From sequence record PZ091942.1: 64,000 nt of DNA; one strand, written 5' to 3'. This document shows positions 1,111 through 61,719 of the stretch, in pieces; position 1 is the stretch's first letter; each line of letters starts with the position of its first letter. This DNA is from a phage. Both the position numbers and the translations under genes were made by a program. The notes under the pieces are model-generated. The model saw nothing but the letters and a program-made list of their open reading frames with translations, did not search any database and had not been told where the DNA came from.

Positions 1111-1349
1111 AAGTGAATTTCGAAATCGTCCCAAAGACTAAACAAAAGACGTTAACTTTCGGTGATTTATCTAATGGGGACATCTTCAAGTTTAAAAATC
1201 CCGACGATGACACTTTTTTCTTGATGAAGGTGACATCTACATTTTCGTCGGCTATGAAGTTAAGCAGCACCTCTGACATACTCAAGGTTTCTGCGAACGC
1301 TGAAGTTGAAAAGTATGAATACAAAATTCTTATTGAGGGTAAGCAATGA
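1107..1349 (+). CDS. small hypothetical protein, GD-x-F paralog family
   Basis: ATGA overlap with upstream stop; shares L..GD(I/V)F(K/R) N-terminal motif with ORFs at 1346, 2596, 5174, 6816. Confidence 0.5.
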   Translation: MKVNFEIVPKTKQKTLTFGDLSNGDIFKFKNPDDDTFFLMKVTSTFSSAMKLSSTSDILKVSANAEVEKYEYKILIEGKQ

Positions 1350-1576
1350 AAATTAATCTCCCATCTTTAGTTGTTACTAAAAAGCTCAGCGATCTACGTC
1401 CGGGTGATGTATTCCGTCTACCAACTAATTCTGAACACCTCTATCTAAAGACAGACACCTGCCTGAATGATATGCATCGTGTGGTTGGTCTTCGTCAGGG
1501 AACACTATTCCAGTTACAGGAACATCATGAAGTTATCCCTGTATTTGATGTTCAAGTGACTAATATTGGTGGTTAA
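1346..1576 (+). CDS. small hypothetical protein, GD-x-F paralog family
   Basis: DLRPGDVFRLP ... LFQL..VIPV closely parallels ORF 6816-7067 (DMSPGDVFRATEYP ... LFRLEIDMVVIPV). Confidence 0.5.
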   Translation: MKINLPSLVVTKKLSDLRPGDVFRLPTNSEHLYLKTDTCLNDMHRVVGLRQGTLFQLQEHHEVIPVFDVQVTNIGG

Positions 1577-1885
1577 ATGATAAATCTCAATATCCGTAGA
1601 GGTTTTTACCCTAAAGTCTCCTTCCGTGCTCAACTGGAGCAGCTTTCTGGTGTAACTTTCTTAGAGTTTACTTACAGCTGTGGTCGAGACAATCCCGGTT
1701 TCACTGTCACAATTGAATCTGGTTGGTTTAATATGACCATTATGCCAGAGGATGTTAACAATGCCCTTCGTGGTATTAAGTCCGGCGGCCTAAACCTTTT
1801 AGCTCCCAAGGTGGGTGATGAACTTCTTGCTGTGATTCGTAATGGTGTGGATAAAACAGCTAAGATGGTTGAAGCCCTTAAGTAA
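1577..1885 (+). CDS. hypothetical protein
   Basis: ORF abutting previous stop, same strand and codon style as neighbours; followed by repeat element A. Confidence 0.5.
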   Translation: MINLNIRRGFYPKVSFRAQLEQLSGVTFLEFTYSCGRDNPGFTVTIESGWFNMTIMPEDVNNALRGIKSGGLNLLAPKVGDELLAVIRNGVDKTAKMVEALK

Positions 1886-1893
1886 CATCGACT

Positions 1894-2004
1894 TATAGCC
1901 CTTGTGCTTATCAGAGGGCTATGTGAGGATGTTCCTCAATTAACTATAATCTCAATGCCATATGGCTCACCGCTAGGGAGAGACTTGTCTCAAACATCCG
2001 GTGA
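1894..2004. repeat. conserved intergenic element, copy A
   Basis: TATAGCCCTTGTGCTTATCAGAGGGCTATGTGAG (31/33 identical to copy at 7072) plus downstream block with GCTAGGGAGAG and AACATCCG..GATAGA shared with copy B. Confidence 0.6.
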
Positions 2005-2188
2005 TAGACTAAAACCTGTTTAATTTTCGAATGGCATTCCGATATGTAGGGGTATGTATCGGTTTGGGATAGAGAACAATCTAGGGGTAGAGAGTTCTCG
2101 ACAGTTTGTACAAGCGGAAGCCTTAACGTGTAGGGCTTCCCTTTATATTAACTGGCAATCCTGCCTCCATTAACAAAGAGAGAACGTT

Positions 2189-3993: not shown

Positions 3994-4069
3994 GCACCCT
4001 TAGCTCAATGGATAGAGCAGCGACCTTCTAAGTCGTTGGTTACAGGTTCGAGTCCTGTAGGGTGCACCA
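3994..4069 (+). tRNA. tRNA-Arg (anticodon UCU)
   Basis: Cloverleaf read by eye: acceptor GCACCCT/AGGGTGC, D-arm GCTC-AATGGATA-GAGC, anticodon stem GCGAC/GTCGT with loop CTTCTAA, T-arm ACAGG-TTCGAGT-CCTGT, encoded CCA. Confidence 0.85.
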
Positions 4070-6582: not shown

Positions 6583-6816
6583 ATGTCTAAAGTTAGCGCA
6601 ATTGATGCCATCCGTCAGCCGTTCCAGTTTCAGTCCAAGTCAACTCAGACCCAAAGTGAACCGCGTCAGATTCGTCTGGGTGGTACAGAGAAGTCTGTGT
6701 TTGATATTGCGAAAAACAAAAGCGTAACCATCGTCGAAGGTGGTGAGCTGGTTAATGTTTCCCATCGTATCCGCACTGGCAAAACTGCCAAAGATCGTGC
6801 TAAGAAAGGTCTGTAA
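6583..6816 (+). CDS. hypothetical protein
   Basis: ATG preceded by AAGGTAATAAA, the same leader seen upstream of 28774. Confidence 0.45.
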   Translation: MSKVSAIDAIRQPFQFQSKSTQTQSEPRQIRLGGTEKSVFDIAKNKSVTIVEGGELVNVSHRIRTGKTAKDRAKKGL

Positions 6817-7067
6817 TGCAAATTGCTAATAAAACCCCTCCTGAATCAATTACCCAAGTAAAGGATATGTCACCGGGAGATGTATTTCGTGCAACGGAAT
6901 ATCCGGGGGATTTCTTTATTCGAATCCCCTCAGCATCTGTTGGTGGCATCGCTAAACCGGTAACAGCAGTTCAGCTAAGTACGGGTCATCTCTTCCGTTT
7001 AGAGATTGATATGGTTGTGATTCCTGTTCCAACAGCAATCCTCCGCTTCGACGGAGCCACAGAGTAA
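6816..7067 (+). CDS. small hypothetical protein, GD-x-F paralog family
   Basis: Paralog of 1346-1576; followed by repeat element B. Confidence 0.5.
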   Translation: MQIANKTPPESITQVKDMSPGDVFRATEYPGDFFIRIPSASVGGIAKPVTAVQLSTGHLFRLEIDMVVIPVPTAILRFDGATE

Positions 7068-7071
7068 CATC

Positions 7072-7200
7072 TATAGCCCTTGTGAGTATCAGAGGGCTAT
7101 GTGAGCTATTCTGGCTCAACTAACCTAAACTTAATTTAATCTTACCCGTATGGGGCCGATGCTAGGGAGAGGAACAGTCCTCGAACATCCGTCGGATAGA
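7072..7200. repeat. conserved intergenic element, copy B
   Basis: TATAGCCCTTGTGAGTATCAGAGGGCTATGTGAG plus GCTAGGGAGAG block; internal hairpin GAGGA-ACAG-TCCTC covaries with GAGAC-TT-GTCTC in copy A. Confidence 0.6.
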
Positions 7201-7308
7201 ATATTTTAAGAGCAGGTTATCCACAGATATTGGGTGATATCTATTTAATTGGCCTTAAAGCTTGGCTCTCTTAGGAGAGTCCTTTTTTAAGTTCAAAGAA
7301 GAGGTTGT

Positions 7309-7476
7309 ATGGATAATAAGTTGAAAGTTAAGTTCTTATTGGCAGCAATCTTTATTTGCTTAGCCACCGTGGGGTTTGCCCGTGTGACTTCCTTTGTATC
7401 TTGTGAATTAAGCAAGAACAACAGAGGGTCTTATAACTGGCTTACCAATCAATGTGATAAACAGGAGAAGTTATGA
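7309..7476 (+). CDS. small secreted/membrane protein (55 aa, not in ORF track)
   Basis: ATG after GAAGAGG; hydrophobic N-terminus KFLLAAIFICLATVGFA; stop overlaps ATG of next gene (ATGA). Confidence 0.35.
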   Translation: MDNKLKVKFLLAAIFICLATVGFARVTSFVSCELSKNNRGSYNWLTNQCDKQEKL

Positions 7477-16817: not shown

Positions 16818-16874
16818 TTTGCTTTAGCCTCTTCGAAAGAGGGGGCTAGTTCGAATTTAACTGGAGGTTGTAAA

Positions 16875-32195: not shown

Positions 32196-32438
32196 GTGAC
32201 TCTAACCTCTAAAGAATTAAAAGAAACTCTGGAAACATCTGAAGGTAAACAACACCTCCTTGCACAGATTCACTCAATGAGTAAAGATACCTTACGTCAG
32301 GCTCTATATGAGCTGACCACTGCTGTTATCCAGATTGAAGCTAACGCTGAAGAAAGTTTGATTAAATTAGAAGCTGCTGATGCAGAAATCAATGGATTGA
32401 AGGTTCGTATTGCCGAGCTGGAAACACAAAATAAATAA
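32196..32438 (+). CDS. coiled-coil hypothetical protein
   Basis: 80-aa helical ORF ending at terminator. Confidence 0.45.
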   Translation: MTLTSKELKETLETSEGKQHLLAQIHSMSKDTLRQALYELTTAVIQIEANAEESLIKLEAADAEINGLKVRIAELETQNK

Positions 32439-32464
32439 GCTACCTTCGGGTGGCTTTTCTTGTC
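32438..32464 (+). terminator. rho-independent terminator
   Basis: AGCTACC-TTCG-GGTGGCT hairpin then TTTCTTG. Confidence 0.6.
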
Positions 32465-35295: not shown

Positions 35296-35318
35296 TGAAT
35301 CTCTCCTTGTAATAGCTT

Positions 35319-35346
35319 AGCCACCTTCGGGTGGCTTTTTTCGTTG
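35319..35346 (+). terminator. rho-independent terminator
   Basis: AGCCACC-TTCG-GGTGGCT perfect hairpin then TTTTTTCGTT. Confidence 0.65.
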
Positions 35347-60624: not shown

Positions 60625-61719
60625 TTAAAGTGACTTAACTGCAATTATAGCCGGAACTTGGGTTGCAGTGGTCTCTGTTCCAGAAGATGGGGTGTATACA
60701 AACCCTTCATAATATTGGCTGTTTGTAACATCATAGATTAGGAATCTAAAAGACCTATTCTGTGCTGATCCCCATGTGTATTGGAATATGCGAGCTGTGG
60801 CGTTGTTCGCATAAGTATTTACACCTGAAACCTTTTTGATAGAAGTAGAGTCAGTGTAAACAGCTTCACTTCTAAGAGTTATTGATTTTCCTGATGTATT
60901 GGAAATCACAATCTCAAAGTTGGCAGAAGTTGTACCCCTCAACCCTATGGAAACTCCCGGAGAATTAGGAAGTAGTGTAGTATGGCTTGTAACATTTACG
61001 CCCGGACACATTCCTTTGGTTGTAAAGACGGATTGACTATTCGCAGCATCCTTCCCAGCAGGACCAGTATCCCCTTTATCCCCTTTCAATCCTTGTGGTC
61101 CAGCAGGGCCTTGACTTCCAGTAGGTCCTTGTTGACCTCTGATACCTTGTGGACCAGCCGGTCCTACCGGACCTTGCGGACCTTCTGCTCCTTGTGATGC
61201 TAAGAGCGCCCAATAGGTTTCATCAGTGGGTAAATTACCTAGGTTATCTCCTTCAAAAACAGAATAATAACTGGCTCCTTGATATCCAACTGAGTTGTTT
61301 TTTGTATAACTGACACTTACATCCCAAGTGCCCATCCATTCTAGCCCAGCTGGTCCTACCGGACCCCGTGGACCTTCCACTCCTTGCGGACCCGCAGGTC
61401 CTTGCTCGCCTTGAACTCCTTGTGGGCCTATTCCTCCGTCAACTCCATCTTTTCCAGCAAGACCTTGTGGACCTTGAGGACCAGCCTCACCTTGAGGGCC
61501 GCGCTCCCCTTGAGGACCAGCGGGACCCGGTTCTCCACCTCCCGGTCCTACCGGACCTTGCGGACCTTCTGGACCTTGTTCCCCTTTAAGTTCTCCGGCT
61601 AGGAATTTCTCGTATGCAATTATTGCTCCACTGAAGGGGATTGTTTTATCGTCATTTACATCGTAAAGCCCGTGACCATAAAACACACCTGCCTTGTGCC
61701 CGTTCTCTATATCAGCCAT
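60625..61719 (-). CDS. collagen-like repeat protein (fiber or decoration)
   Basis: GGAGG RBS; long runs of Gly-X-Y triplets ([16 protein letters not shown]..., [13 protein letters not shown]...) with non-collagen C-terminal domain. Confidence 0.7.

Follow-up and report, generated by a model that had tools for sequence, protein, structure and literature searches.

A repeated structured RNA in the early-gene spacers of a phiEco32-like coliphage

Two spacers between the early genes of a coliphage carry copies of the same intergenic element, which an earlier note on this DNA had described as a repeat with a covarying internal hairpin. Is this element maintained as RNA, and what might it do for the phage? 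The window (the whole 64,000-nt stretch of record PZ091942.1 that was analysed) belongs to a phiEco32-like coliphage: by sequence comparison, its first 9 kb are 96% identical to Escherichia phage ECBP2 and also match approximately 110 other phiEco32-like podoviruses (Gordonclarkvirinae: Suseptimavirus and Kuravirus). The early genes are read along the + strand of the window as a run of small ORFs with a tRNA-Arg at 3994-4069, and both copies of the element, A and B, are in spacers between early genes on the early-transcript strand. We show that the element is a real and strongly selected structured RNA, present as two paralogous copies in untranslated spacers of the long early transcript made by the host polymerase.

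The sequences and coordinates originally given for the two copies were reproduced exactly. The repeated core, the 34-nt TATAGCCCTTGTGnnTATCAGAGGGCTATGTGAG, occurs exactly twice (1894-1927 and 7072-7105), and shuffled sequences are expected to contain none even at 3 mismatches; the downstream block, GCTAGGGAGAG-N-AACATCCG, also occurs exactly twice (1972-2000 and 7161-7191), with none expected by chance. The inner hairpins are as described, GAGAC-TT-GTCTC in A and GAGGA-ACAG-TCCTC in B, and both copies do follow the stop codon of a small gene, starting 4-8 nt past ORF 1577-1885 (A) and ORF 6816-7067 (B). The shared module is 71% identical between A and B over approximately 125-140 nt, opening at the stop codon of the ORF before it and ending shortly after the last hairpin (A 1883-2011, B 7065-7202). 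The remainder of the two spacers is unrelated, with an identity (46%) equal to the alignment baseline. A covariance model of the whole element has only these two matches in the window (137.8 and 106.8 bits), with none other in the 64 kb or in the rest of the early region.

A hairpin at 16825-16848 that had been called related does exist (TAGCCTCTTCGAAAGAGGGGGCTA, consisting of UAGCCUCUU-CGAAA-GAGGGGGCUA; -19.5 kcal/mol with its flanks) and lies 8 nt past a stop codon. It is not a third copy, however: only the H1-like stem-loop is present, with no H2-H4, and the whole-element covariance model does not match it. It is possible that the first helix exists here in stand-alone form. Other repeats in the window include two terminator-like hairpins in the middle-gene region (GCYACCTTCGGGTGGC followed by T-runs, 32430-32463 and 35311-35344), which are 82% identical, and an array of 9-nt periodic repeats (GGACCTTGYGGACC...) encoding collagen-like Gly-X-Y in a late gene (61142-61587, within the - strand ORF 60625-61719).

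On the sense strand, each copy has the same order of structures: H1, H2, a G-poor linker, H3 and H4, the last composed of an outer and an inner stem (Table 1). H1 is a 10-bp helix with a 10-nt loop and is separated by a 1-nt gap from H2 (5-6 bp) in the window copies. The linker between H2 and H3 is 18-27 nt in length and has virtually no G. H3 (3-4 bp) carries an RUAU loop and is adjoined by H4, in which a 6-bp outer stem leads to a symmetric 7x7 internal loop (CUAGGGN / NAACAUC) and then to a 3-5-bp inner stem that always starts GAG/CUC. Folding of both copies, proposed earlier as a check, gave better folds than shuffled sequence for each spacer (A, z = -4.2; B, z = -3.0). An alternative to H2 was noted in both copy types: UAAC of the stop context is able to pair with GUU(A), which belongs to the 5' arm of H2, giving a longer H1 (approximately 17 bp with an internal loop) and the loss of H2. 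In copy A, RNAalifold pairs AACAUC with GAUGUU (1928-1933) in place of H2, with one compensatory pair. Such an alternative could act as a translation-sensitive switch. The minimum-energy alternative of copy A, in which AAUGCCAU pairs with AUGGCAUU, was rejected, as this pairing is not conserved in other phages.

Table 1. Coordinates of the element copies, the remaining spacer features and the linked genes in the window
Feature	Position	Strand	Evidence or remarks
Paralogue of the 6816-7067 gene family	1346-1576	+	Next to copy A, on its upstream side, in ECBP2, SU7 and Bas87
Copy A 5' boundary: stop UAA of ORF 1577-1885 plus CAUCGACU	1883-1893	+	Flank comparison; UAAC(AYC) context kept whatever the upstream gene
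Copy A H1: UAUAGCCCUU / AGAGGGCUAUG, 10 bp, 10-nt loop	1894-1923	+	Folds; pair counts (3/10 double-sided, 94.5% of cells paired)
Copy A H2: GAGGA-UGU-UCCUC	1925-1937	+	Alignment pairs 49-65 (UA/GC/CG) and 50-64 (UG/GU/UA/AU) covary
Copy A linker: G-free A/U/C, conserved YUAAC	1938-1956	+	Alignments; TATAAT (1945-1950) not conserved elsewhere
Copy A H3: GCC-AUAU-GGC, RUAU loop, invariant closing C-G	1957-1966	+	2/3 pairs double-sided, 100% of cells paired
Copy A H4: outer UCACCG/CGGUGA, inner GAGAC/GUCUC	1967-2004	+	Double-sided changes in 3 outer and 2 inner pairs
Copy A H4 loop: CUAGGGA / AAACAUC	1973-1979 / 1992-1998	+	Loop invariant, 33 sequences
A-spacer extra hairpin 1: loop GGGG within UAGGGGUA	2039-2062	+	Pair 159-178 is GC/AU/GU
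A-spacer extra hairpin 2: loop GGGG within CUAGGGGUAG	2072-2099	+	Five pairs double-sided
A-spacer terminal hairpin: stem 2116-2140, -16.6 kcal/mol, poor tail CUUUAUAUU	2116-2150	+	Terminator scan, fold
Upstream gene of B: 83 aa, SH3-like barrel, GDVF motif	6816-7067	+	Small-protein family
Copy B 5' boundary: stop UAA of ORF 6816-7067 plus CAUC	7065-7071	+	Flank comparison
Copy B H1	7072-7101	+	Folds, pair counts
Copy B H2: GAGC(UA)-loop-(UG)GCUC	7103-7117	+	Fold, pair counts
Copy B linker: G-free; UAACCU (7121-7126) and CUUAA (7130-7134) form the 5' strand of the long-range helix	7118-7144	+	
Copy B H3: CCC-GUAU-GGG	7145-7154	+	Pair counts
Copy B H4: outer CCGAUG/CGUCGG, inner GAGGA/UCCUC	7156-7195	+	Pair counts
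Copy B H4 loop: CUAGGGA / GAACAUC	7162-7168 / 7183-7189	+	Invariant loop
B long-range helix, 3' strand; encloses H3 and H4	7206-7219	+	AGGUUA 7214-7219, UUAAG 7206-7210
Perfect DnaA box TTATCCACA (9/9)	7217-7225	+	Overlaps the 3' strand of the long-range helix
Canonical intrinsic terminator: GGCUCUC-UUAG-GAGAGUC (7264-7281), then CUUUUUU	7264-7288	+	Scan, fold

The proposal that selection acts on RNA structure had been made from a single hairpin; the analysis extends it to five covarying helices. We built a structure-registered alignment of 33 distinct sequences, comprising both copy types of Gordonclarkvirinae, A and B, together with the one copy carried by Salmonella 7-11/SE131-like phages, and compensatory changes keep the pairing in all five helices across these two phage families. 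Standard pairs fill 95.7% of pair cells, compared to 35-48% after a shift of the 3' partners by 1-3 columns, and the covariation score is 0.389, compared to 0.137 in column shuffles. Double-sided changes are found in 12/30 pairs, spread over all five helices; the number of independent covariation events is modest, as the sequences come from few deep lineages (A and B of two genera, with Salmonella), although several switches are seen repeatedly within lineages. There are 85 G-U cells, and pairing falls from 95.7% in the sense orientation to 87.3% in antisense. Together with the compensatory changes, the G-U pairs indicate that the structure is formed at the level of RNA and not of duplex DNA.

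The stems vary yet remain paired; what stays invariant across copies and phage families is the internal loop of H4, the loop of H3 and the junction of H1 with H2. The 14 nucleotides of the H4 internal loop are identical in 33/33 sequences except at the N/N position beside the inner stem, which is A.G in 19, C.A in 11, A.A in 3 and C.G in none. This position switches repeatedly inside the A, B and Salmonella groups, suggesting a non-Watson-Crick pair that is kept isosteric.

A covariance-model search of related phages had also been proposed earlier. The element recurs in phages of both E. coli and Salmonella: approximately 100 GenBank phages retain the two spacers, and Salmonella phages of the 7-11/SE131 group (Grimontviridae, Moazamivirus) have one B-like copy each, the model finding a single copy per locus. 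The B spacer of the window is 86% identical to that of phiEco32 and 68% identical to that of Salmonella phage SE131. Flanking coding sequences have an identity of only 47-53%, close to the approximately 50% baseline of shuffled sequence under the same scoring, and the proteins upstream of B are 30% identical. Judged by these alignments, the B spacer is an island of conservation among early genes that are at baseline. Neutrality is excluded by this persistence in two phage families while the neighbouring genes fell to baseline.

Scans for the exact core in IMG/VR, in one genome per GTDB species and in JGI metagenomes gave genuine matches to the same phage groups only; the remaining matches, including a tandem coding duplication in a Pseudomonadales MAG, were rejected as chance matches without H1 and H3. 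One 8-kb contig with a B-type copy and the upstream family gene is binned as a 'Peptococcaceae' MAG (L021, CALKAR010000070.1); it is presumably from a mis-binned Kuravirus-like phage. The model had no match in Proteus phages P59 and 3H10_20 or in Cronobacter phages GAP52 and A24, and the element is thus not essential to the transcription strategy that these relatives share. Phage PKM.Lu.22.1 has a 17-bit partial match (L100 11747-11856, - strand) with H1, H2, an AACUAAC linker and H3 and with no H4 core; its spacer continues with a different 3' domain and then a terminator, and the upstream gene is outside the family described below. This spacer may be a distant or partial relative.

No known RNA family accounts for the element. 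With Rfam 15 at gathering thresholds, only the tRNA-Arg was found in the window, and with E values up to 10 both spacers gave only sub-threshold chance matches, the best being STnc100 (21 of 47 bits) over the terminator. A broad literature search returned nothing relevant to the element. The family appears to be new and uncatalogued, and its kind, a cis-RNA module in phage early operons, a known one.

Several other identities were considered and rejected. A simple terminator is ruled out, as the earlier note had judged: the sequence after H1 is GUGAG and that after H4 is AUAGA, with a U-tract behind neither, and a terminator scan calls only 2116-2140 and 7264-7281. Of the functions suggested in the earlier note, a phage-specific promoter did not hold up; a small structured RNA and an RNA processing site are both still viable. 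No sigma-70 promoter (TTGACA-17-TATAAT) is called in or near either copy, all matches to the phiEco32 gp36-type consensus TAATGTATA are elsewhere in the window, and the TATAAT in copy A is not conserved. With respect to coding capacity, copy B lacks a counterpart of ORF 1904-2023 of copy A, and in phiEco32 the frame of this ORF is disrupted by 2+2-nt indels. Two small 'hypothetical proteins' are annotated inside the A spacer in Bas87 (Bas87_0109 and Bas87_0108; L103 319-587) and in several other BASEL phages; the frames are not conserved and these ORFs are therefore probably spurious. A lambda-type nut site was also rejected, as there is no boxB hairpin (5-bp stem with a GNRA-like pentaloop, preceded in such sites by boxA CGCUCUU(U)A) and the loops are RUAU, UGU or 10 nt. 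The linker resembles boxA loosely and in some copies only, and in B the boxA-like segment is predicted to be base-paired. On inspection by eye, boxA similarity, a canonical K-turn, the sarcin-ricin motif, CsrA GGA sites and a pseudoknot between the H3 loop and AUAGA were each rejected for a key position that is variable or in the wrong register.

Beyond the repeat and its hairpin, the analysis added a downstream terminator, a DnaA box and a long-range helix in B, and a linked upstream gene family. Outside the shared module, the two spacers differ. Two extra covarying hairpins with UAGGGGUA loops are present in A-type spacers only. UAGGG(G/A) loop motifs are located at 1974-1979, 2047-2054 and 2082-2089; the A spacer thus has three UAGGG motifs in 115 nt, GCUAGGGAG in H4 and one in each of the two extra hairpin loops. 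In the terminal hairpin of the A spacer, the U-tract is poor and is not conserved (CGCUGUAUC in NJ01-type phages), making this hairpin doubtful as a terminator. B-type copies have a long-range helix (UAACCU/AGGUUA, then CUUAA/UUAAG) that encloses H3 and H4 in a three-way junction, and its CUUAA/UUAAG segment covaries, being UCUUUU/AAAAGA in Salmonella phages. All B-type and Salmonella copies have the DnaA box that overlaps this helix, its distance to the core start being fixed at +51 to +56 nt, and no other perfect box is usually present in 8-18 kb of the locus. The 64-kb window has just one more perfect box (1846-1854, - strand), which lies within the DUF7247 gene at 40 nt from copy A on the upstream side and is specific to this phage. 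The B terminator is kept, with stem covariation, in all B-type and Salmonella copies and lies 20 nt before the next ORF (start at 7309), with no promoter-like site in between. The weak U-tract of the A hairpin means that the pairing of element and terminator is solid only for B.

The gene that ends at the 5' edge of the element often belongs to one family of small proteins (72-85 aa, SH3-like barrel, GDVF motif; PHROGs 6570/16423/7832, no Pfam match) that was found in these phages only. A family ORF ends at this edge in 21/32 distinct contexts (A 10/14, B 6/13, Salmonella 5/5). The window deviates from this arrangement at copy A, where the DUF7247 gene (1577-1885) is inserted between the element and the family member at 1346-1576; a third paralogue is present at 1107-1349. 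Because a family member is found beside both copy types, the duplicated unit was probably gene plus RNA. A rather improbable extension of this observation is that an SH3/KOW-like protein gene and the RNA form an ancestral two-part cassette, a new phage ribonucleoprotein that would reprogram host RNA polymerase or neutralise a host factor or defence early in infection. A cassette that reprograms the polymerase would be a new protein-plus-RNA antitermination system.

The position of the copies relative to the early promoters bears on function. In SU10, early promoters are confined to 73.5-76.7 kb, with no further promoter until 47.2 kb; on the same map, A is at 68.0-68.3 kb and B at 62.6-62.9 kb, or approximately 5.3 and 11 kb downstream of the early promoters. 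No copy closer to these promoters was found by the covariance model elsewhere in the early region; in the Salmonella phages, the one copy is approximately 19 kb from the early promoters. The block of replication genes follows B, with the helicase gene approximately 550 nt downstream of the copy. With early promoters only upstream and the next at 47.2 kb, polymerases must cross both spacers, including the B terminator, for the downstream early genes (the helicase block among them) to be expressed. Gaps in annotation are also seen in this part of the genome: phiEco32 has approximately 1.9 kb without annotated genes between genes 124 and 125 (72787-74730; L104 4788-6731), the SU10 equivalent of this gap contains three early promoters, and ECBP2 has a similar gap of 2.2 kb (L106 4614-6776).

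By analogy with nut and put sites, the element may be a factor-recognition RNA that controls the read-through or fate of the early transcript, a reading that we tentatively rank first given the promoter layout, the B terminator, the likeness to nut/put and the postulate that phage 7-11 likely needs an undefined antitermination strategy for its long early transcripts (PMC8948821). The invariant loop would be the recognition surface for a trans-acting macromolecule, candidates being host RNA polymerase or elongation factors, an RNase, or the SH3-like protein encoded just upstream, and the module would decide the fate of the early transcript at the spacer boundary. The mechanism that we favour within this reading is control of read-through at the hairpin or terminator closing the same spacer, such that polymerases from distant early promoters would continue into the next gene block (after B, the replication genes), the mode of action of lambda nut and HK022 put sites. 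Several observations do not fit easily: nut and put are promoter-proximal whereas both copies, and the sole copy in Salmonella phages even more so, are many kilobases from the early promoters; the A-spacer hairpin has a weak, non-conserved U-tract; the boxA-like similarity is weak and the model finds nothing in HK022; Proteus and Cronobacter phage relatives do without the element; and a leaky terminator alone would explain downstream gene expression. It is possible, and second in our ranking, that the element is instead a processing or stability signal at which RNase III (acting on extended H1 or on H4) or RNase E (acting on the AU-rich linker) cuts the early polycistronic RNA, with H1/H2 shielding the upstream message at its 3' end and H3/H4 shielding the downstream piece at its 5' end, as at the RNase III sites of the T7 early genes. 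The intercistronic position directly past a stop codon fits such a signal, as do stable hairpins flanking an unstructured, G-free linker of 18-27 nt, a conserved 'bubble' within covarying stems like that of T7 RNase III sites, and a stop-codon context that can lengthen H1. Compared to a T7-type signal (approximately 20 bp with an internal loop), the helices are nevertheless short or marginal, H4 consisting of 6 bp, the 7x7 loop and 3-5 bp and extended H1 of approximately 17 bp, and 14 invariant loop nucleotides would be needless in a passive stabiliser. More doubtful is a released, stable small RNA of approximately 130-230 nt (the spacer, or its part from H3-H4 to the terminator), resembling a 3'UTR-derived sRNA, that would act on targets by base-pairing or on a protein of host or phage by binding it, as a decoy, sponge or anti-defence RNA. 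Such an RNA would fit a spacer that is structured along its whole length up to a terminator or hairpin at the end, the extreme conservation of its sequence while the early genes around it vary, the UAGGG(G/A) motifs found repeatedly in loops, and a neighbouring gene for an SH3-like barrel, which is a common fold of RNA-binding proteins; set against this, there is no conserved promoter of its own, and the similarity between A and B ends at H4, their 3' parts (46% identical) differing so completely that the two copies would yield different RNAs.

The remaining explanations have less in their favour. That the B spacer is a replication origin, its transcript or structure priming or activating replication at a DnaA box upstream of the helicase module, is unlikely: the fixed position of TTATCCACA in every B-type and Salmonella copy and the nearby helicase gene are suggestive, but a conserved DnaA box is lacking from copy A, which shares the RNA module, both the compensatory changes and the G-U pairs indicate RNA, and RNA pairing already accounts for part of the box (AGGUUA). 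Unlikelier again is a ligand-sensing riboswitch or self-cleaving ribozyme of a new class. The invariant internal loop, the three-way junction in B (long-range helix, H3 and H4), the alternative pairings involving H2 and the downstream terminator would be expected of such an RNA; however, no Rfam riboswitch or ribozyme matches even at E = 10, the conserved domain is not overlapped by the terminator, and the long-range helix is absent from A. A DNA-level site (a promoter or protein-binding site) or a neutral remnant of recent duplication is highly improbable. Although copy A has an AT-rich stretch with a TATAAT and the duplicated unit seems to take in the upstream gene, the absence of a sigma-70 or gp36 consensus, the lack of conservation of the TATAAT and the survival of the element across two phage families beside genes at baseline all speak against these possibilities, which the covariation, in favouring RNA, largely refutes.

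Transcription takeover through a phage sigma factor, gp79 and Srd-like anti-sigma proteins is studied in phiEco32 and 7-11 as model phages, and the passage of their 25-40-kb early transcripts through internal terminators is an acknowledged gap (PMC8948821). The element is the most conserved sequence of an otherwise hypervariable early region, and its fold and loop make this gap directly testable. Should it bind RNA polymerase or the adjacent SH3-like protein, it would be a new class among the very few RNA-based antitermination or transcript-fate devices; should it be a processing site or a released RNA, it would still be a new phage RNA family that annotation pipelines have missed or covered with spurious small ORFs.

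Among known systems, the RNase III signals of the T7 early genes are repeated intercistronic hairpins just past stop codons, with a conserved internal loop and variable stems. The element is likewise an intercistronic repeat in a host-transcribed early operon with a conserved loop and variable stems, but its helices are shorter than the approximately two turns preferred by RNase III, and its multi-hairpin architecture and G-free linker have no T7 counterpart. Enterobacterial 3'UTR-derived sRNAs come from a structured stretch between stop codon and terminator, from which they can be released by RNase E. The element occupies a similar structured untranslated stretch; unlike these sRNAs, it has no identified Hfq-type motifs, and its conserved part is the 5' half of the spacer and not a terminator-proximal seed region. 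In comparison to lambda nut (boxA and boxB with the N protein), the adjacent phage protein is an SH3-like barrel and not an arginine-rich peptide, the 15-nt boxB-type hairpin is missing and the boxA-like similarity is weak, limited to Salmonella copies and in a segment predicted to be paired; there are nonetheless two copies per genome and a small phage protein gene alongside, and the layout of gene stop, RNA site, terminator and next genes resembles cro-nutR-tR1. HK022 putL and putR have no sequence or structure homology to the element (covariance model R1 had no match in the whole HK022 genome at E up to 10), are shorter (approximately 70 nt and two stems, compared to approximately 125-140 nt and five helices) and are within approximately 300 nt of PL and PR, whereas the element copies are 5 and 11 kb downstream of the early promoters. 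A put RNA binds the zinc-binding domain of RNA polymerase beta-prime independently of other factors, and terminators are then read through. Like the element, however, the put sites are present as two similar copies per genome in early transcripts of host RNA polymerase, form adjacent stem-loops with covarying stems and invariant, unpaired loop residues, and are located upstream of terminators that need to be passed (PMC9378689).
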